Assembly: GCA_951406725.2 (NCBI GenBank)
Contig: OX597837.1
Span: forward strand, 2,790,001 to 2,854,000
Direction: 5' to 3'
Source of the DNA: Octopus vulgaris
Lineage: Eukaryota
Length of the DNA stretch: 64,000 nt
Both the position numbers and the translations under genes were made by a program. Positions 35,200-57,815 of this stretch are shown in pieces. Every line of letters begins with the position of its first letter. The stretch's first letter is position 1. A model generated the notes under the pieces. It was given only the letters and a program-made list of their open reading frames with translations, had not been told where the DNA came from and made no database searches.

Positions 35200-36490
35200 T
35201 CTTCTAAAATTCACTTGTCTGTGATGATAAATACTCCTCCAGTACTGTTCTGACCCCATCTACAGAATTCATATATTTTCCGTTCAAATAATTTTGAAAA
35301 GGTCACACATGTCATTCCACAGCTTTGAGGTGAATTGTGGACCCTGATCAGATGAGATGCTATCTGGGACACCGAAACAGGTGACCCAGTTTGTGATGAA
35401 ACCTCGGCCGACTTCTTGTGTTTCTGTACTGCGGAGGGGGATAGCTTCAGGCAAACGGGTGCAGCGGTCTATCAAGGTTAGTAGAAATGAGCAACCCTGT
35501 GAAGGTGGTAGGGGGCTGAATCGGGCCTGAGGTGGTTCATTGTTGCCAAGGGGTACTTTGGTGTGTTGATGGATCTTGGCTTGTTGACAGGAGATGAAGG
35601 ACCTGGTCCAGTCCCCAATTTGCTTGGTCATACCATTCCAGATAAATTTGCTTGACAGCAGCCGCCGTGTGGCTTTTGTACCTGGGTGGAAAAGTCTGTG
35701 GATGATGTGGAAAACTTTATTGCGCCAGGCTGATGGGACGATCGGTCATGGCTTGCCAGTGGATACATCACACAGTAGTGTTGTGCCGTTAGAGCCAAAG
35801 TAGTGTACATCCTGCAAAGAAAGTGATGTGATGGCAGAGCGGTAGGCCCTGATCTCGTCATCTGTCTGTTGGTTTGCAGCCATAGCTTCGTAATCCAAGC
35901 CTTCCGTTATTGGTGCTAGGTAGGTATGAGAGTGGATAGGAGCACAAGAGAGTACATCAGCAACTGGGTTGGATGTCTGAGTTGTACTCAGAAATTGCCA
36001 ATAGCTGTCATTGTTGGAGTACAGACCAAGGCTCAGAGAGCTTGCTCAAAGCAAAGGTGAGTGGTTTGTGATCTGTGAATACTGTAAATGGGCAGCTTTC
36101 AAGGAAATACCAAAAGTAGTGGACAGCCAGTAGATCCCTGTCGAAAGCACTGTATTTCTGTTCAGGGGATCGTAGTTGTCCACTGAAGAAGGCAAGTGGT
36201 CGCCACTGACTGTTGATATATTAGTCCAAAACGCCCCCAATAGCTGTGTCGGATGCATCAACTGTGAGTGCAGTCCAAGCTGACATGCGAGGATGTGACA
36301 GCATGGTTGCTTGGGCCAGGGCTTGTTTTGTGTATTCGAAGGCTGAAGTCATTTTACTGTCCCATTCCACCTGTCTTTTTGAATCCTCTTTTGATAGTGC
36401 CTTGAATAGGAGTCTCAACACTTTTGCTGCAGAAGGGATGAAGCGATGGTAAAAGTTTACTATGCCCACGAAATGATGTATGTGCATTTA
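35200..36490 (-). mobile_element. Gypsy LTR-retrotransposon pol fragment (RT end, RNase H, integrase), pseudogenised
   Basis: FVGIVNFYHRFIP..LTVDASDTAIGGVL (RNase H); C..CQQAK..H, LLTLIDR.TR.PEAIP, ISSDQGPQFTS (integrase). Confidence 0.9.
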
Positions 36491-37825: not shown

Positions 37826-38079
37826 GGTCAATATATATTGACCGAAATTTCTTCATAATTTGTGCCATTTGAACGGTATTTCTATAAAATTTCATCAATA
37901 TATATCCATTTTCCTGAAAGTTTTGAGGGAAAAATCGGATCTTGTGAATTTTCCGAAAGTCTCCCACCTCCACGTTCGTTTGCGCAATTTTTTTTTTTTC
38001 ATATTCGTTCCCTACACGCTTTTTTACACCAAGTAGGCTTTTGTCTTTTTTCGTTAGGGTATTAAACTTTTTACTGACC
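37826..38079. mobile_element. Merlin-related MITE
   Basis: GG..CC ends, TSD ctttaaat (37818-37825, 38080-38087); internal similarity to the subterminal region of the Merlin element at 47800-47890. Confidence 0.7.
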
Positions 38080-41417: not shown

Positions 41418-42314
41418 ATGGATCTTTCTGAAGAATTGCCAAAGGAGGTGAGAAGATCAGCATATCTCTGTGATATCTGTCAACGAACATTTTCTTTAAA
41501 AAGTAGACTTACCAACCATAAATGTGTACCCACAGAGGAGAAACAATACAACTGTGATACCTGTGGCAAATCATTCTCTCGACTGGATCACTTATATACA
41601 CACAAACGCTTACATACAGGAGAAAGGCCATATACCTGTAATATCTGTGGTAATTCATTCTCTGTAGCAAGTCACCTAAACAGTCATAAACGTACTCATA
41701 CAGGTGAAAAACCATATCATTGTGATATCTGTGGTAAATCATTCTCTCAGACTAATGGCTTAACTAGCCACGTACGTACTCATACAGGTGAGAAACCATA
41801 TCAGTGTAACATTTGTGGGGAATCTTTCTCTGAAAGGGGTAACTTGGCTAAACACAAAAATATTCATACAGGTGAGAAGTCTTATCATTGTGACATCTGT
41901 GGCAAATCATTCTTTCAAAAAGTACATTTGAATTCTCACAGACGTACTCATACAGGTGAGAGACCGTATCACTGTGATGTCTGCGGTACTTCATTCATTT
42001 ATGCCGACACATTAACTAAACACAAACGTACTCACACGGGAGAAAAGCCGTATTGCTGTGATACTTGCGGTAAATCCTTCATTGAAGGAGGTTCATTAAC
42101 TGTTCACAGACGTATTCATACAGGTGAGAAGCCATATCCATGTGATATCTGCGGCATATCATTCTGCCGAACCAATCAGTTAACAGTACATAAAAGACGC
42201 ATTCATACAGGGGAGAAATCATATCACTGCAATAACTGTGGGAGATCATTCACAAGTAGAAGGTCCTTAACTGCTCATAAACGGAATCATTCAAATGAGA
42301 AACCATATAATTGA
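41418..42314 (+). CDS. C2H2 zinc-finger protein 4 (10 finger units)
   Basis: 298-aa tandem C2H2 ORF; acceptor ending at 41134. Confidence 0.93.
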   Translation: MDLSEELPKEVRRSAYLCDICQRTFSLKSRLTNHKCVPTEEKQYNCDTCGKSFSRLDHLYTHKRLHTGERPYTCNICGNSFSVASHLNSHKRTHTGEKPYHCDICGKSFSQTNGLTSHVRTHTGEKPYQCNICGESFSERGNLAKHKNIHTGEKSYHCDICGKSFFQKVHLNSHRRTHTGERPYHCDVCGTSFIYADTLTKHKRTHTGEKPYCCDTCGKSFIEGGSLTVHRRIHTGEKPYPCDICGISFCRTNQLTVHKRRIHTGEKSYHCNNCGRSFTSRRSLTAHKRNHSNEKPYN

Positions 42315-44707
42315 TATCTTCAACGGAGCAAGTCATTTATTGATACAGATGAGACACATTCATACAAAAGAAAAATCATGTGATTACAATATCTCTGGTA
42401 AATCTTTCACTGATGAAAGTAGATTAACTAGTCAAAAATGTATTCATACTGGTCAGAAGCCATATAGTGTTATCATCATCATTTAGTGTTTTTTTTTTCC
42501 AGGCTAGCACGGGTCAGACTATTTGACTAGAGCTGGTAAGTTGTTGAGCTGCACCAGACTCCATTCTGTTGTATGTATTGTAAATTGTTCAAGCTAAATT
42601 AAGCTGAAACATTTTCATACAGGTGAGAAACCAACCAACCTACTGTAATATCTTCGGTGAATGACTATGAAAGGTGTTATTTAACTAAAGACAAATACAC
42701 TCTCACAGGAGAGAACTTATATTACTGGGATGTTGTGGTACATTATTCTCTTAAACAAGTTATATAACTATTCACAGATGTATCTATACAAGAGAAGAAA
42801 CCATTCAGTGTGATATTTGTGTTAAATCTCTCTTCCAAAATAGTGATGCAATTAAGCACAAACTTATACAGGGGGAATAATCTGACATCTGTGGTAAATT
42901 GCTCTGCTTTTATTACTCACAAATGCATTCAGACAGAAGTAAAAATTATAATTCTGTGATATCGGTGGTAAATCATTTTATCAAAATAGTCATTTAACCA
43001 AACACAAATGTATTCAATCCAATGAAAATCTGTACCACATATCTGAGATATCAGTATTCTTATGTGGCCAAGGACATGACAGCCTCTGTAGTGCTGGCTC
43101 TACACCAAAATACATCCAGTACACTTTCAAAGAGACAGTGATATGTAGGGAAGTATTCCCCAAAATGGTGCATAGAATTCAAATGTTTTTCCTCATCTAT
43201 GAAACATGGAATAGAGCCTAATGTCAATTTGTTTCGTTTTTCTTTTCTGGTATTAATAATTCTCCGTTAATTATAAATATTGTTTTGCATTGGTTACTAA
43301 TTCATGCAGTGTTATGAGAATGAATTGAGTTTCAGATTAATCATTTTGTCCATGTTATACTTTGCAATCTGATTCATTCTGAGTTTTGCTCATTCACTAA
43401 AAATATGCTTATTTCAACATAAATGCAGGTTAGAAAAATATAGGATCATAACTTACAGCTATTTTCAAAATCAAATTTCAACTAAAAATTTCAATTCAAA
43501 GGTAAATTTTTCTGCTGCATTTTATTCCAGCATAAAATATAACTTATTACAATAGAATTGATTCAAGATGTTTTTGAGAATAATACAGTTTAGGATAATT
43601 AAAAATCATTGCTGTTGACCGAGATCTTAACTTAAAATGCGTGCTGCTTCACCTTCTGGTATTTAAGCCATCTACCTCAGAAAATTGAAGTATTTGTATG
43701 TTTTATTAATATAGTTATCCCTAGGATGAATCATGTCTCACCAAGGGATCATAGTGTTTATAGCCTTGTTAAGTATCCCAATACCCGGGATTAAAGTTTT
43801 GTCATATGCTGACATTGAAAATTAAAATAGACTCAAATGTCTTTAAATGATGATACCAGTAGCCAAGATTGTGTTGAGTGAATTACTTGTCAACCTCTCC
43901 ATAAATGTGCGTTTTGACCAGCTGCTCTGTGCTTTTTAATACCTGGAATAAAAAACAAATCTCTTGGAATACAGGTAGTTCTTGTGAGGAAAAGCATCTG
44001 TCCAGTCCAATCAAGTATGGGAAAACAAACATTAAATATAATGATTGAAGAAATAATTTTGGTCAATAGACGTGTCTTTTCTCATAGTGATGTCTGAGTA
44101 TAAAACGGAGAGATACAGGCAGCAAAATAAGAGTTGGCAAGGAGTTCTGGGAAGAAATTAGGGTGCTAATAGGTGTAATTCACAGTTTGGTTCTGGGTTT
44201 GATATTATTTATTATGATTCTTGCAGTCATATCAGGAATTTAAGACCATATATATGCTGCAAACATAGTCCTTATAGCAGAGATTGGGGAGGTATTTGGA
44301 TAAGCAATTCCAAATGTGAAAGTGTGGTGGTGGTGAAAAGCAAAGTCGACCTTGGCGGAATTTGAACTCAGAACGTAGCAGCAGACGAAATGCCACTAAG
44401 CATTTCGCCCGGTGTGCTAACGATTCTGCCAGCTCACCACCGGAAGGCTTATAACACCATTGCGAACCTTGGTTATAATCAGTGTCAATCACTCAGTTAA
44501 TTTTGTCGATCCTATTTCACATGCTTCAACCAATCATGTAGAGGGAATGTAGAACAGGGCCAAAAGACAGAATAAAAGAGAAATTGGAACAGCAAGGACA
44601 TGTCTTAATAGTTATTTAGTTGAATTCATGTGGTGATATCACTTTAATGATGATCCGTTCCAGAATCTTTTGAATGGTATGTGAAATGTTTATAATCTAT
44701 AATTTTC

Positions 44708-45231
44708 GGATTTTTCGGTTTGAACGGCAGTTTATTCTAGCGGTGTCATATGAAATTGTCACCCATAATTATGACCCTAGTATCGATCTATTGCATTTCA
44801 ATCTGTTTTAGGGTTAGGGGTGGGGGGAAGGATAGTTTTTTTCTTCACAAATGTAAATAAACCCTATCTGTTTCTTAAACGAGGGACATATTCATACGGC
44901 ACGGAATGTTTTTTTTTTACCTCAATAGACGTCATTGATTGGTTGAAATTGCAGAAATTAAAGAAAAAAACAACAAATATCTTACAAACTATAGAATTTT
45001 CTCAATAAAGCCAAGAGAAAAAGATGTTTTATAAACACATTCTACCAGTATACGAAGTTTAAAAGTGTTTAGTTACGTGGAAATTATTTTAAAAAACTGC
45101 CGGTCAAACCGAAAAGACCTCTAACCCTAAAACAGATTGAAATGCAATAGATCGATACTAGGGTCATAATTATGGGTGACAATTTCATATGACACCGCTA
45201 GAAAAAACTGCCGTTCAAACCGAAAAGATCC
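44708..45231. mobile_element. ~410-bp MITE fused to an inverted copy of its own left end
   Basis: Full copy 44708-45119, followed directly by the reverse complement of its first ~110 bp (45121-45231). Confidence 0.75.
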
Positions 45232-45246
45232 CAGCTTAGAAAAGTA

Positions 45247-47948
45247 GGTTAAACTAAAGCGTTACGCCATTCAAAGAATCAAAAAAAAAATATGTGTAAT
45301 AGGTGTAAAACAACTTCCTATGAACGAATATGAAAAAAAAATGCCCGCACGAGAAAGTGGGGTGGGGGAGATTCCTCGGAAAATTCACATCGGGAATTTC
45401 CGAAAGCGTCTGAGGGATTGACCCGGGCACCAAAACAAAAAAAAAATAGTGTAATATGTGTAAAACAACTTGCTCTAAACGAATATGATAAAAAAAATGC
45501 GCGCTCGCGAAAGGAGGGTGGGGGAGAGGGTTCGGAAATTTCACATCTTCAGTCCACGTCCTTTAAACTAAGAAAAAATTGTGTAATTGGTGTAAAACTA
45601 CTTGTTCTAAACGAGTATCAAGAACACACACTCACACATGAATCATAAACTCCGTATTTTTGTACATATTTCGCAAAAAAAAAAATAAATAAAGAGAAGA
45701 AATTCTGGAAAAAGTGAAGAAATGTTGGATCTCCGCCATGTGAATCAAAATACGTGTCAGAAACATCTTGAAATACTACAGAAATTATGTTACGAAAATG
45801 ATAATGTATACATACCTCTTTGAGTGGTCCATCGACAGTGTTGATAAAGAAATGAGATGGGTTGCGTTTGGAGGAAAAAATTATCTCGGGCCAGGATAAA
45901 GACTTGCTGCTACCAATAAGAATACGTGTATTCTCTTGGCAGCAGGTTTAATGCTGTCCATAAAAAGGAACTTGGCGATGTATTGTTTTAAGTAACAGGC
46001 ACGAATGCCTGGGCGAACAACTGATCTCTTAACTGACCCCCACAATCTCTCTATCGTCTGTGTGTGCACCGACGCGTTTGTCGGATTAACAAAGTTTTCA
46101 CTGTGGTTGATGCGGAAGTGGGTATACCCGAGATTTCCAAGAGAGTTATACGCAGCCCAAGAATCGCTATATACTACCGACCCTTGGCGTATATATCGGG
46201 TAATTAAGGGGATCAGTGTGGCGGCATCTCGCCTTTCCTCTTCACCACACTCAGATGAAAGAGGTATCAAAACTTTTTTTTGCCTATTCACTCTATCCCA
46301 CCGAAAAGCCAGATAGTTTTTGTGAGTCTTCCATGATTGTATTTCCTCCTTACAATAACTGTTTCATCGAACTCTACTTCAACTCCTGGTCCACCGATTT
46401 AGTCCCGGTAATTCTCTATCCAATGCTGACAAACCTCGGAGCAGAAGGATCGCCAATCAATTGAGGTCGGATACGAAATGTTCAAATTTTCCACGACTAA
46501 TGCATGCGACCAACAGTCTGTAAGGAAGTAATTCACAAATAACAGGATTTTACAGGGTGGTAGCTGATTCCGCTCCAAAAATGTGTTGCTGTATAGGGAT
46601 ATTGAATATCCACATTGCGTTGGCCTTTGCCTTCGACGGCGAACAGTCCTTCCACATCGGAAGATGTTTGTATTTTCGCGCAATGTACATGGTAAATTGC
46701 ATCTAGGGCAGTCAACTGTGTTGGGAATGATATTATGTTTTCGAAAGAAATCTAATGCCTCACTGTCATTAGTAAATCGCGAATCCCATCATGTAATGTT
46801 AATTCACATGAATTGCAAAGTGCCATTCTCTATCATACAACTTAACGCTTGTGTATCTACGACTGAAATGAATAAGAACTTGTTCTGTACCAAGGAGCGG
46901 GAAATCCTCCACACCAGAAGATGGGATGAGTAAACACTGGTCAATGAAAGGTCAGTCTTGTCTAAGGACAGTTGTTTACAAGACGATTGTTGGTACCAAG
47001 TTATAGGCCCCTAAGGACAGTGTCCTTAAGGACATTTGATAAGGCATTTCTTGGGCTGCGTATAACTCTCTTGGAAATCTCGGGTATACCCACTTCCGCA
47101 TCAACCACAGTGAAAACTTTGTTAATCCGACAAACGCGTCGGTGCACACACAGACGATAGAGAGATTGTGGGGGTCAGTTAAGAGATCAGTTGTTCGCCC
47201 AGGCATTCGTGCCTGTTACTTAAAACAATACATCGCCAAGTTCCTTTTTATGGACAGCATTAAACCTGCTGCCAAGAGAATACACGTATTCTTATTGGCA
47301 GCAGCAAGTCTTTATCCTGGCCCGAGATAATTTTTTCCTCCAAACGCAACCCATCTCATTTCTTTATCATCACTGTCGATGGACCACTCAAAGAGGTATG
47401 TATACATTATCATTTTCGTAACATAATTTCTGTAGTATTTCAAGATGTTTCTGACACGTATTTTGATTCACATGGCGGAGATCCAACATTTCTTCACTTT
47501 TTCCAGAATTTCTTCTCTTTATTTATTTTTTTTTTTGCGAAATATGTACAAAAATACGGAGTTTATGATTCATGTGTGAGTGTGTGTTCTTGATCCTCGT
47601 TTAGAACAAGTAGTTTTACACCAATTACACAATTTTTTCTTAGTTTAAAGGCCGTGGACTGAAGATGTGAAATTTCCGAACCCTCTCCCCCACCCCCCCC
47701 TTTCGCGAGCGCGCATTTTTTTTATCATATTCGTTTAGAGCAAGTTGTTTTACACATATTACACTATTTTTTTTTTTGTTTTGGTGCCCGGGTCAGATGC
47801 TTTCGGAAATTCCCGATGTGAATTTTCCGAGGCATCTCCCCCACCCCCCTTTCGCGTGCGGGCATTTTTTTTCATATTCGTTCATAGGAAGTTGTTTTAC
47901 ACCTATTTTTTTTTGATTCTTTGAATGGCGTAACGCTTTAGTTTAACC
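45247..47948 (-). mobile_element. Merlin (IS1595/ISXO2-family) DNA transposon with ~900-bp inverted arms
   Basis: Termini ggttaaactaaagcgttacgcc / ggcgtaacgctttagtttaacc; perfect 8-bp TSD gaaaagta (45239-45246, 47949-47956); arms 45247-46163 and 47048-47948. Confidence 0.92.
45881..46835 (-). pseudogene. Merlin/IS1595-family DDE transposase (stop plus frameshift)
   Basis: CPRC..C zinc ribbon; *IGGPGVEVEFDET..RKYNHGR..WLFGGIE; YSDSWAAY..L..GYTH..INHS.NFV....HTQTIERLW. Confidence 0.9.
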
Positions 47949-48233
47949 GAAAAGTATATTATTGTGCCAAATTAAGAAATTTTCGATAAACTTTAATTTT
48001 TTGAAATGCTGACAACCAAACAAACTGCATCCAGATTTTTAAGTAAAATAAAGTCTCTACTTGAAACATTCCAGGACCGCATTGGTCGGAGACTCTACCA
48101 TTCCAGCTATTTTGTTAAGGTTCTTTCTACAGATATTCTATAGAACTTAAAGCCAGCACTGTCTTTTGCTACAACGTTTCGTATCGAGACGTCAGATATA
48201 AACAGACAATGTCATCGCAGGCAAAAGTGGCTA

Positions 48234-48285
48234 ATGAGTGTATATGCCATATTTCGAGGGTTGTTGCCCCTTCTTCAGCACTCAT
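48234..48285 (-). ncRNA. Type-I hammerhead ribozyme, antisense to the ZNF5 promoter
   Basis: Minus strand: atgagtg-CTGAAGA-aggggcaacaaccctc-GAAA-tatggcata-TA-cactcat; 7-bp stem I, AUA triplet. Confidence 0.7.
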
Positions 48286-48329
48286 CTAACCTACGAAGTA
48301 CCACGTACCTATAAATCTTAATGATTACT

Positions 48330-48575
48330 TTTGAGGTTATAATTCTTGGGATCGAAAGTTCGGCTGGAGACGTAAAGTCAGCTTCACTTGCAAATTGTCA
48401 CAAATTAGGATTTTATTGCAGAAGGAAGTTGGAAGCTGAGGGAAGGCAATAAACTTGGAAGTTCTATAGAGAAACATCAATGAATTTCGTTTTAACTATC
48501 AGATATTTGCACTGGTAGTTTGGTGAAAACATATGACTCACTGATTTACTGTTTACACCTGAAAACGGTAAGTTG
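48330..48575 (+). promoter_or_regulatory. Putative promoter/non-coding exon 1 of ZNF gene 5; donor at 48568
   Basis: gatcgaaagttcggctggagacgtaaagtcagcttcacttg; gaaaacg|gtaagttg. Confidence 0.65.
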
Positions 48576-48626
48576 ATAAACGCCTGTTTTAATGCAGTAA
48601 TAATGTATGTAAATAGTAGAATCGTG

Positions 48627-48704
48627 GGTGAACCTTGTAAGTGGCTTTGTTTACATTTATGAAGATAACAGAAACCCTTTTTTCCCACCCCTAACCCTAA
48701 GCCC

Positions 48705-49420: not shown

Positions 49421-49910
49421 ATAACAGATGAAGAAGCAGTTTTTAAAGTAAATGAACTTGGTTTTATCAATTTGGAATTAATGTAAAATGTCACTGTAAA
49501 ATCCCTACTTTTTACTTATCTTTAATATCTTACACTGTTTTGCTATCATTTCAGAATATCAGATGAGATTGGTGTTAAAAATATATTCTCAATATTTGTC
49601 ACCATTTACAGAGAAATGGAAGATTTTATACAACTCTTCTGTAAATTTATTTTTTGAGTTACTGAAAGTTCGTCCAAGTGAAACATATCCCCTCATTGTG
49701 TAGAAGGCCTATAAGAGGATTTTGGAGTCTAATTCAGTTTGGACTGATTGACAAAGCAGTAGTTTGCTACCACTTTCTGATAACAACAAAGATAACAGTT
49801 GATGGAGGTATTGCAGTCGAAAGCTTTTCATCAGTGCTGTAATAAGTAAAGAGGATGGAAAATATCAATATAACTATTGTGTGAAATTAAAATAAAAGAA
49901 AAATAAAAGA

Positions 49911-50885
49911 ATGAATTTTTCTGAAGAATTGCCAAAGAAGGAGGGAAAATCATCATATCGCTGTGATGTCTGTCAAAAGACATTCTCTCTTGAGAATAAC
50001 CTTTCCAACCATAAATGTATTCACAGAAAAGAGAAACGACACAACTGTGATATCTGTGGTATATCATTTTCTCGTACGGATTACTTAAATAATCATAAAC
50101 GATTACATACAGGTGAAAGGCCATATGTGTGTAATATCTGTGGTAGTTCATTCTCTGTAGCAAGTAGCTTAAACAGACATAAACGTACTCATACAGGTGA
50201 GAAACCGTTTCATTGTGACACCTGTGGTAAATCTTTCTCTCAGACTTATGACTTAACACGACACATACGTACTCATACAGGTGAGAAACCATATCAGTGT
50301 AACATTTGTGGTGAGTCATTCTCCGAAAGGGGTAATTTGGCTAAACACAAAAACATTCATACAGGTGAGAAGTCACATCGCTGTGACATCTGTGGCAAAT
50401 CATTCTTTCAAAAAGTACATTTAAATTCTCACAGAGGTATTCATACAGGAGAGAAACCATATCACTGTGATATCTGCGGTAAGTCATTCATTGATGCTGG
50501 TAAGTTAACTAAACACAAACGTACTCACACAGGAGAAAAGCCATATCCCTGTGAAATCTGTGGTAAATTATTCTCTCACTCGAGTCAGTTAATAGTACAC
50601 AGGAGACGCATTCATACAAGTGAGAAGCCATATCATTGTGATATCTGTGGTAAATCATTCATTGTTGGAGGTTCATTAACTGTTCACAGACGTATTCATA
50701 CAGGTGAGAAGCCATATCCATGTGATATCTGTGGCATATCATTCCGTCTAACTAATCAGTTAACGAAACATAGGAAACGCATTCATACGGGAGAGAAACC
50801 ATATCACTGCAATCACTGTGGTAGATCATTCACAAGTGGAAGGTCATTAACTGCTCATAAACAGAACCATAAGGATAAGAATTGA
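49911..50885 (+). CDS. C2H2 zinc-finger protein 5 (11 fingers)
   Basis: 324-aa tandem C2H2 ORF; acceptor ending at 49554. Confidence 0.95.
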
Positions 50886-53091: not shown

Positions 53092-54878
53092 CTGGGTGTT
53101 CAAAATGTTTCTCCGCAGCAAGTATGTTATTGCAAAATAAATATTTATAAGATGGTATAAGACCACAAAAGAATATATTAGACTTTACAAGACTTTAAAA
53201 AACTTTATAAGAGGTGATGAAAGTGTCGGACTTGATTATTAATACATAAGATGTCTCTTCTACACGTGTTTTGAAATACATCTTGGAGAGTCTGATGCGT
53301 TATGGACCGTGTGAAGGTTATGATTGTGTCTTTTAGCTCATTAATGGTTTTCAGGCGATTCTTGTACACCGATCCTTTACTTGCTCCTCAAGAAATAAAA
53401 GTTTGGCGGTGTTAAATCAGGTGATCTTGGTGGCCAAAGTCCCTTCGAAATAATCCGTTAACCGAAAAACTCTTGAAGTAGCACCATGGCGCTGTAGCTC
53501 GATCTTGCTGAAAGTATGCATTATTAATTTCACTTTTAGTGGCCTACAAATGAATAACAATATTTGAGCAATATCTCTCGGTGTTGATGGTGTCCTCGGG
53601 GGATCTTTTCGGTTTGAACGGCAGTTTTTAACATAATTTCTAGGTAACTAAAAAATTTGAAACTTCGTATACTGGTAGAATGTGTTTATAAAACATCTTT
53701 TTCTCTTGGCTTTATTGAGAAAATTCTATAGTTCGTAAGATATCTGTTGTTGTTTTTTTTCAATTTCAACCAATCACTGACGTCTATTGAGGTAAAAAAA
53801 ACATTCCGTGCCGTATGAATATGTCCCTCGTTTAAGAAACAGATTGGGTTTATTTACATTTGTGAAGAAAAAAAAGATACCCTTCCCCCACCCCTAACCC
53901 TAAAACAGATTGAAATGCAATAGATCGATAGTAGGGTCATAATTATGGGTGACAATTTCATGACACCGCTAGAAAAAAACTGCCGTTCAAACCGAAAAGA
54001 TCCCATATCGGTCCCACAACACGCTTTCTCGAAATTGCTATCCATCTTCCAACTTTTTCGTGATGCAGAGGTTGCTCATACGTCGCGTGGGGATTTTCAG
54101 TGCTCCATAACCTTGTGTGGCGTAACCTCGGTATATGTACCGGAAACATTTCAAGAAAGTGTTTTTTTTATATATATGGGGGGTTAGGGGTGGGAGAAAA
54201 AGGTTTCTGTTATCTTCAGAAATGTAAACAAAGTCACGTGTGTATCTATACCGAGGCATCGCCCCTTGTGTTCTGCGAATTTCTGTCCCGACAGATGAAA
54301 CCAAGCCTCGTCGATGTAAAATCACCCATTCAGCACTTCTATGCTTTTTTCGGCAACAAAATTTTGGAACCAATGTCCAATAATGAAAGTCATTCAGTTT
54401 GATCCGTCGTTTTCAAATCTTGAATGGGCAGCACTTTGTATGGAGAGAAATGTAATTTCTTTTTTACTGCCGTGTGAGCACTTCCTAGGCTAATCTCCGT
54501 TTCCTGTGACAATTTGCGTAAGGACTTAGACGGGTTTGCCAACAGTTTATCAGAAATATTGGAGAGTGTTGCGTCTGAAAGAACGGTGGGCCGACCGCTT
54601 CTTGCTGTGTCTTCCACTGACCCAGTCTTTCTAAATTTTCTTATCAATTCCCGCACAGTGTCACGATGTGGGACAGCAGTATTTGGAAAAGCTTCGCTGA
54701 ACTTCTGTTTCACGCTATCTGTGTATTTGTTTCCAGCTCGAAACACCCATTCGACTAAAAACGTTCGTTCTTCGATGGTCAACATTTCGACATGCCAAAA
54801 GGACAGGAGCGATGATAGCCAAGTTGCGCATGCGCACGATGGAAATTTTCACTGCGGAGAGACTTTCTGAACACCCTG
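53092..54878 (-). mobile_element. Tc1/mariner-superfamily fossil (DUF4817-type HTH N-terminus) with two nested MITEs
   Basis: TIRs c(t/a)gggtgttca.aa.gt.tctccgcag; ORF 54390-54785 (..KFRKTGSVED..RSGRP..); decayed DEAWFHLSG, FQQD and WPPRSPDL motifs. Confidence 0.85.
54119..54263. mobile_element. Merlin-type short MITE nested in the mariner fossil
   Basis: TSD ccttgtgt at 54111-54118 and 54264-54271. Confidence 0.85.
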
Positions 54879-56440: not shown

Positions 56441-57815
56441 GGCGAGCTGCTTAGCAGTATTTCGTCTGTCATTACGTTCTGAGTTCAAATTCCGCCGAGG
56501 TCGACTTTACCTTTCGTCCTCTCGGGGTCGATAAATAAAGTACCAGTTTCGCACTGGATCGATGTAATCGACTTAATCCCTTTGTCTGTCCTTGTTTGTC
56601 CCCTCTATGTTTAGCCCCTTGTGTGCAATAAAGAAATATATATTGAAGGGAACACTTTGTACTTGTAATATTTTTAGTTTTTTGTATTTTCAGATCAATT
56701 TTGCGACTTTATGTCCCACAAACTTATATCTCATACGGTTAAACAGTTTGCGCAAATTTTTGTGCTCATTTGTTTTCTACAATTTTTTTAACACCTGGTA
56801 GGCTGTTTTTGTGTGTGTGTGTGTGACCGGGGCTTCCAGTTTCTTAAACGTTATGATGGAAAAAATCGGATCTTGTGAATTTTCCGAAAGTCCTTCGTTG
56901 GTGTAAATTTTTGTTTTCATATTTGATTATACACATTTTTTTACAGCTATTTTACATTTTTGTTTTGGTGACCGGTAGTTAAAGTAAACATTAACCAAAA
57001 TAAATTGTCTTTTACATACGATTTTTTAAAATCACTCCCTGCAGTGATCTCAGACTCTCTAACATTTTAATACTGTAATCAAAAACGAAGTGGGGTGGTA
57101 ATGAAAAATGTTTCTACATTTTCTTTTAATAGCATCTAATTCCTCTTATGCCTAACTTCTTTCTCAATACACTAGCACCCTGATGAACATGTACACTTGC
57201 ATTACACATCCAGCAGAGCATGCTGACCTCGTTCCTCTCTAACCTTGACATGTCTTCTGCATTCAAGGCCCACATCTCACTACCATGTAAAATTGCTGTC
57301 CGTATACATGATTTAAATAACAGATGAAGAAGCAGTTTTTAAAGGAAATGAACTAGTGTTATTCAATATGGAATTAATGTAGAATTTCACTGTCAGATCC
57401 CTACGTTTTAATTATCTTTAATATCTTATTCTGTTTTCCTATCTTTTCAGAATAACAGATGAGATTGGCATCAAAGATATATTCTCAATATTTCTCACCA
57501 TTTACAAAGAAAGGAAAGATTTTACACAGAAGAGCTCCAACTTTTCTTCTATGAATATATCTTTTGAGTTCCCAACAATAAGTTCTTCCAAGTGAAACAT
57601 TTCTCCCCATTGTCTGGGAGGTGTGTGAGAGGATTTTGTATTCTAATTTAATTTGGACTGTTTTACAAAGCAGTAGTTTGCTACCACTTTCTGATAGCAG
57701 CAAAGATAACAGTTGATGGAGGTATGGCAGCAGAATGGTTTTCATCAGTGCTGTAAGGAATAAATAGAAGGAAAAATGTCAATATAACTATTGTGTAGAA
57801 GAAAAAAATAAAAGA

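Follow-up and report, generated by a model that had tools for sequence, protein, structure and literature searches.

A dead Merlin transposon in the octopus genome whose fold-back arms probably arose when its 5' inverted repeat was lengthened by copying its own 3' end

The window analysed here, a stretch of 64,000 nucleotides from Octopus vulgaris (positions 2,790,001 to 2,854,000 of contig OX597837.1, GenBank assembly GCA_951406725.2), is a tandem array of C2H2 zinc-finger (ZNF) genes, and between two of them lies a transposon whose ends are long mirror images of each other that include part of its own transposase gene. How did a transposon come to carry coding sequence in both of its arms, did it move in this form, and could it fold into a double-stranded RNA that silences its family, as the initial annotation proposed by analogy with Mu killer of maize? 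The fold-back structure itself is real. The left arm (45247-46163, 917 bp) and the right arm (47048-47948, 901 bp) are identical in 889 of 898 aligned columns and differ by nine substitutions and five indels (of 10, 1, 8, 1 and 2 bases), which confirms the long, little-diverged mirror arms that had been described, and the last 283 bp of the transposase coding sequence, given earlier as ~280 bp, are present in both. Each arm begins with 5'-GG and opens with three related tandem units of ~130-155 bp each, and the inner transposase sequence of one end is repeated, inverted, behind the terminal inverted repeat (TIR) of the opposite end, as in an extended TIR. The perfect 8-bp target-site duplication (TSD) said to surround the whole structure is likewise there: an identical 8-mer in direct orientation borders both arms (Table 1), the sequences beyond it differ, and the chance of an 8/8 match at a fixed place is ~2.6e-5.

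Table 1. Features of the fold-back element and of the neighbouring ZNF gene (window positions)
Feature	Position	Strand	Remarks
Left TSD copy	45239..45246	.	8 bp
Left (3'-side) native TIR	45247..45635	.	~375-390 bp; GG start; three tandem units; inner border approximate
3' spacer/UTR	45636..45880	-	template of the duplicated part
Full-length Merlin (DDE_Tnp_IS1595) transposase pseudogene	45881..46826	-	ATG 46826; stop codon 45883-45881
Unduplicated loop	46164..47047	.	884 bp; 5' two thirds of the transposase gene and retained 5' spacer
Retained native 5' spacer	46827..47047	-	~220 bp; repeated 8-11-bp motifs and 14-bp palindrome 47021-47034
New junction of 5' spacer and copied arm	47047..47049	.	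inferred 2-bp microhomology
Recruited inverted copy	47048..47572	+	last 283 bp of transposase and 3' spacer
Right TIR	47573..47948	.	probably the original 5' TIR, overwritten in part from its inner side
Right TSD copy	47949..47956	.	8 bp
Next C2H2 ZNF gene: inferred promoter/first non-coding exon	48340..48568	+	coding exon 49896-50885; conserved, splice donor included, in 7 paralogous stretches

By the features listed in the accessible part of a published survey of the superfamily (PMC8101967), the element is a Merlin transposon, as had been recognised from the outset: it has GG ends, an 8-bp TSD, internal tandem repeats and a DDE_Tnp_IS1595 transposase with a D-D-E triad. The conceptual transposase matches the PF12762 profile (E 1.7e-16, 61 bits against a cut-off of 27), keeps all three catalytic residues (D at 46368, D at 46165 and E at 46051) and is 64-72% identical to the full-length 314-315-aa proteins P0001 and P0002. 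The Pfam domain Zn_Tnp_IS1595 was found neither in the N-terminal pieces at E<=0.1 nor in P0001 and P0002 at E<=0.01. This copy of the transposase is dead, a point that the initial annotation left unmentioned: in place of the intact ORF of an autonomous Merlin it has an ORF broken by two in-frame stops (46401 and 46290) and two frameshifts (near 46775 and 46275), and all four lesions are confined to the unduplicated loop. The right arm codes for residues ~223-314, which include the catalytic E and neither D. The element departs from the superfamily as that survey portrays it in that its ORF is dead and its inverted repeat, lengthened to ~900 bp, includes 283 bp of the coding region.

The locus was compared with Logan contigs, with 4 of 24 listed sequencing runs placed on 46110-48400; nine of the 24 are guessed to be RNA, none being recorded as such. 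Runs X1 and X3, from organisms A and B, are DNA-like; X15 and X16 are only guessed to be RNA and might contain DNA. The results cover 31 records listed beside 6643 further pieces and 40 of 185 variant rows; X1 was read to ~76%, contigs drop rare variants, and the depth figures are rough, summed contig depth being no copy number. Single-copy flank contigs have depths of ~40 in X1 and 40-60 in X3, and among the records listed for these DNA-like runs contig depth is 314 and 447-484 in the element's 5' part and 1142 and 1177 in the duplicated coding part. Summed depth is 29,000-110,000 over 47342-47572 against 220,000-480,000 over 47573-47880, with a step at 47573 from 65,000 to 376,000 in X1 and from 97,000 to 385,000 in X3, and a contig among the records listed for X1 has a loose end at 47573. 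Taken roughly, the profile reads as some ten near-identical long copies together with a MITE family of very large size. To this MITE family belong the TIR and 3' spacer (47342-47948); its summed depth is thousands of times single-copy in organisms A and B, its members vary in the number of tandem units, and their joints skip or repeat ~90-175 bp. We also noted a diverged Merlin-like locus (places 46736-46855) that is single-copy in X1 (depth 38.7) and reaches depths of 242 and 154 in the guessed-RNA runs; it may be an expressed or domesticated relative of Merlin.

The differences between the arms are unevenly spread: 12 of the 14 fall within the outer 374 bp, and the inner 543 bp hold two (binomial p 0.0008, or 0.006 after scan correction). 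Depth and difference density are independent of each other and agree on a border between TIR/MITE and inner sequence near 47573, which suggests that the native TIR ends there, ~375 bp from the terminus, a position drawn from these two measures rather than from a canonical full copy. When substitutions alone are counted, the outer part holds seven and the inner part two (p 0.03 at the chosen cut, 0.13 after scan correction), a weak contrast, and to that extent a point against extension of the TIR by copying. GC and CpG content are similar in the two parts, and homopolymer bases make up 53 of 374 outer and 37 of 543 inner positions; faster mutation of the outer part, or assembly errors within it, may be another source of the unevenness.

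Letters that the two arms share, and that the family does not, bear on the order of events. An A at 47124 in the right arm and at the matching position 46087 in the left turns FVDP into FVNP; D occupies this position in 6 of 6 aligned homologues, and the 17 contigs that cover the place in the four runs all carry the other letter, none of them the A. Since both arms have this private A, one of them was copied from the lineage's own mutated 3' end. Of the four places that disable the gene, three (46290, 46273 and 46778) have different letters in the contigs, and these lesions therefore belong to the present lineage. At 47631/45580 the letter shared by the arms is accompanied by only ~3.6 single-copy depths among thousands, and the copied tract probably extended at least to this position. 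Fourteen of the 18 right-arm variant rows listed were mapped to the left arm (the four present in one run only were omitted), and at 12 of these 14 the two arms agree with each other and depart from the family letter, which the left arm has at the other two (47595 and 47798); the right arm agrees with the family contigs at 47299 and 47370. The letters common to both outer arms at 47681, 47834 and 47861 are minority letters of the family, which fits subfamily variants and also a copy event that reached the very end, and the remaining shared letters, whose residuals are larger in one run or more, could be subfamily variants as well. In the outer ~310-375 bp the two TIRs are likely still those that the element started with. 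The earlier statement that each end copies the element's 3' end is shown only for the inner ~540-600 bp; the outer part is ordinary family TIR, and the lineage-private letters support a rearranged derivative over a family with natively long TIRs.

The initial annotation had read the short repeats beside the junction as suggestive of template switching. Both the palindrome (47021-47034) and the 11-mer pair (46962 and 47011) are present, but they are not borne out as a scar, in that family contigs carry them: X3 record 26, a multi-copy contig (depth 484), holds both copies of the 11-mer, and X16 record 21 (depth 34), which is without the fold-back, continues through the palindrome. The latter contig tracks the 5' spacer to 47049 and then runs on for 27 letters that diverge from the reference, as expected of a canonical 5' end, although this is one contig and the extra letters themselves are not visible. 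Judged from these contigs, the junction motifs are most likely native, and they may perhaps have been the fragile spot. Native spacer and template overlap by 2 bp at the junction, and no contig among the 31 records listed from the four runs spans 47047/47048. A special hairpin around the junction (46940-47100) was considered and rejected, the region folding no better than shuffled sequence (z -0.67). Exact matches were found neither for a 24-mer of the 5' spacer in metagenome contigs nor for the terminal 20-mer in metagenome and viral contigs, collections that are not expected to include octopus DNA.

The account that we favour, and regard as probable, is that of a dead full-length Merlin whose 5' TIR was lengthened from ~375 to ~900 bp by copying of its own 3' end, leaving a fold-back relic that is probably neutral. 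A canonical copy, consisting of TIR, 5' spacer, an ORF of ~314 aa, 3' spacer and TIR, would have inserted ~400 bp upstream of a ZNF gene and then decayed. A break in its 5' part would have left a 5' TIR stub that used the homologous 3' TIR, on the same copy or on its sister chromatid, as a priming site; synthesis would have proceeded ~540 bp beyond the TIR into coding sequence, and the strand would have rejoined the 5' spacer at 47047/47048 over 2 bp of microhomology, with slight later drift of both arms. Because copying in place from the 3' end spares the outer TIR and the TSD, the TSD is no proof that the fold-back moved as a unit, and on the repair model it would date from the original insertion. 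The earlier inference that the rearranged element had moved as a unit was accordingly not sustained by the data, with 12 of the 14 differences lying in the outer ~375 bp and no junction contig among the records listed; since transposition does not reset differences between TIRs, a later jump would still be compatible with them.

A fold-back formed elsewhere and later moved, as a non-autonomous unit, by mobilisation in trans, in the way of mariner Rpmar49, would belong to a small 3'-3' sublineage and would fit the perfect ends and TSD, the efficient trans movement of such ends seen in the MITE family, and the greater depth of the duplicated coding part in both DNA-like runs (~1140-1180 against 310-480 for the 5' part). 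Copies deleted at the 5' end would also account for that extra 3' depth, however, and such a sublineage is hard to square with a marker letter at 47124 found in 0 of 17 contigs from four runs, with the missing junction contig among the records listed and with outer TIRs that are more diverged than the inner arms; we consider this origin unlikely.

Two further readings would do away with the rearrangement altogether, and we give each of them very little credence. One takes the 900-bp arms as the native TIRs of a Merlin family in which they overlap the transposase gene. Only one full copy is in view, and long, internally repeated TIRs are described in other superfamilies (PMC3573991, in the part accessible), but against this stand the lineage-private letters common to both arms, the family contig that departs from the reference at 47049, the depth border near 47573 and the range of published Merlin TIRs, which in the accessible part of the survey is 24-462 bp (PMC8101967) and includes the ~375 bp inferred here. 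The other takes the second arm as an artefact of assembly or of a chimeric read, for which the failure to recover the junction among the listed contigs of four runs could speak. Yet the arms differ at 14 places, the family letter stands in the left arm at 47595 and 47798 and in the right arm at 47299 and 47370, and a direct TSD between differing flanks is not a product of read fold-back, so that the locus, as initially assumed, is probably no assembly artefact.

The neighbourhood of the element supplies the setting for any transcription. The coding exon of the upstream ZNF gene ends at 42314, and the first exon of the downstream ZNF gene, conserved in seven ZNF paralogues, lies ~400 bp from the element's right end, where the initial annotation had placed a promoter; as an inferred promoter this stands, with transcription directed away from the element. 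No empty insertion site was found among the ZNF paralogues compared. The unique N-terminus of one ZNF protein had a single hit, to an Octopus sinensis protein (55% identity, 1 of 3 candidates), in line with the octopus host, to which a search with full-length ZNF5 gave no pointer. Between element and promoter, 48108-48291 is another multi-copy, palindromic MITE-like repeat with high depth and opposite-strand joints. On the other side, a ~410-bp MITE copy (44708-45231) has behind its right TIR an additional 115 bp that duplicate its left end in inverted form (45117-45231), an addition that is absent from 6 of 6 other aligned copies of that MITE in the window and that stops a few bases before the Merlin TSD, so that a second inverted end-duplication adjoins the fold-back. 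Old relics of the Merlin TIR tandem unit, at ~70% identity, occur at 37943-38051 and 56907-56975. ORF fragments at 35284-35745 and 54390-54848 resemble what we take to be a retrotransposon integrase region and the N-terminus of a Tc1/mariner-type transposase.

A transcript across both arms would indeed fold as had been proposed: the predicted structure has 890 arm-arm pairs, with ~-1850 kcal/mol on either strand and perfect stems of 251 and 224 bp. It could in principle make the locus a natural Merlin killer, in which a ~0.9-kb hairpin, transcribed divergently from the ZNF promoter or by read-through from the upstream ZNF gene, represses the transposase mRNA of the family, whether through small RNAs or through hyper-edited RNA routed to piRNA or decay. 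The inferred promoter ~400 bp away would suit such a role, the guessed-RNA runs contain transposase contigs of the family, and coleoid editing targets repeats (PMC9068888, PMC9989829, in the parts accessible). There are also two faint hints from runs that are only guessed to be RNA: X16 record 18 (depth 3) is identical to the loop over 190 bp, and X15 record 15 (depth 4.8) covers the flank at 47957-48115. The ZNF gene nevertheless runs away from the element, so that an antisense or read-through RNA of 2.7-3.1 kb would be needed; the marker letter at 47124 is unseen in four runs, as would hardly be expected of a locus that is fixed and conserved, and the insertion may be polymorphic; and the arms have drifted, indels included. 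Mu killer, moreover, duplicates the promoter-bearing 5' end, and its own read-through hairpin model is contested, as far as the accessible text of PMC3440606 goes. We think it highly unlikely that the octopus locus is an animal transposon killer, with a transcribed hairpin beside the ZNF promoter silencing Merlin transposase mRNA via ADAR hyper-editing or piRNA.

The fate of any RNA that did cross the element is easier to suggest. A 2025 survey of molluscs that includes O. bimaculoides found neither an Argonaute nor a Dicer dedicated to siRNA, saw few reads in Dicer pairs, and suggests that such RNA is melted by editing (PMC12479628), which tells against siRNA silencing here and makes ADAR editing the likelier fate of any read-through. 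As described for metazoans and coleoids, what ADAR ordinarily acts on is dsRNA derived from repeats (PMC9989829, PMC9068888), so hyper-editing at this locus would be expected rather than surprising. On this analysis, stray RNA across both arms would most likely form ~890 base pairs and serve as an ordinary ADAR substrate, not as a source of siRNA. In the contigs, which drop rare variants, A>G/T>C places number 16/16 in X16 and 9/11 in X15, not above the C>T/G>A places (23/22 and 11/10) and like the DNA-like runs. Each arm has an inward-facing AATAAA pair (45684/45688 and its mirror) that could stop read-through, to which we give no weight at a window background of ~1.2 per kb per strand, and Rfam gave 0 matches in 44600-48700. 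Were the hairpin transcribed and repressive, it would extend the Mu killer principle to animals and reveal how long transposase dsRNA is dealt with in a mollusc that has no dedicated siRNA pathway.

With Mu killer and the silencing alleles of Ac/Ds, as presented in the accessible parts of the sources (PMC3440606; bioRxiv 10.1101/2020.01.07.897926), the octopus locus shares an inverted duplication of part of a transposase gene, in or beside a transposon and near host genes. The plant loci, however, are defined by transcription, siRNAs and dominant silencing, and the octopus locus by its sequence. Mu killer, defined by genetics and small RNAs, duplicates TIRA plus 1.3 kb of mudrA (PMC3440606), that is, the 5' end with its promoter, whereas here it is the 3' third that is duplicated. 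A literature search for an animal counterpart of Mu killer turned up a single paper, which concerns meiotic drive. The sequence suggests a resemblance to Mu killer in outline, which would not suffice to class the locus with it.

Closer parallels exist among rearranged DNA transposons, each known to us from partial text. Two mariner elements of Rhodnius prolixus, Rpmar49 and Rpmar17, have their 3' part in place of the 5' part; their TIRs are exceptionally long as a result, and the rearranged arm has homology to the transposase (PMC4678618). The Drosophila mariner MITEs Dromar7/11 show the mirror change, with 3' replaced by 5' (PMC4161770). The octopus element has the same anatomy as Rpmar49/17, its 5' side carrying 3' sequence and its rearranged arm transposase homology. 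The mariner lineages differ in superfamily and are shortened (under ~1 kb) and multi-copy, whereas the octopus copy still has its entire gene, without a second copy turning up among the records listed from four runs; the model put forward for Rpmar and Dromar is a deletion between two neighbouring copies, whereas the private letters shared by the octopus arms favour self-templated repair. A break-repair model with copying past the opposite TIR has been proposed for the extended or recombinant-TIR (2RT) copies of Galileo in Drosophila mojavensis (PMC3573991), and it fits here, where long, internally repeated TIRs were likewise lengthened by recruiting inner sequence; Galileo, by contrast, belongs to the P superfamily, recruits F1/F2 spacers, and its longest-TIR copies are without a transposase ORF. 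No Merlin case of such an extension turned up in the literature searched, which left Repbase, supplements (Merlin family tables) and most subscription papers outside its scope. Both the anatomy and the repair model are already known, and within that literature this is apparently the first time that they have been noted in a Merlin element. The locus points, besides, to a Merlin MITE family that is very abundant in octopus, and on present evidence it provides one clean instance of a TIR extended by self-templated repair, in which the two-layered arms make the order of events legible.
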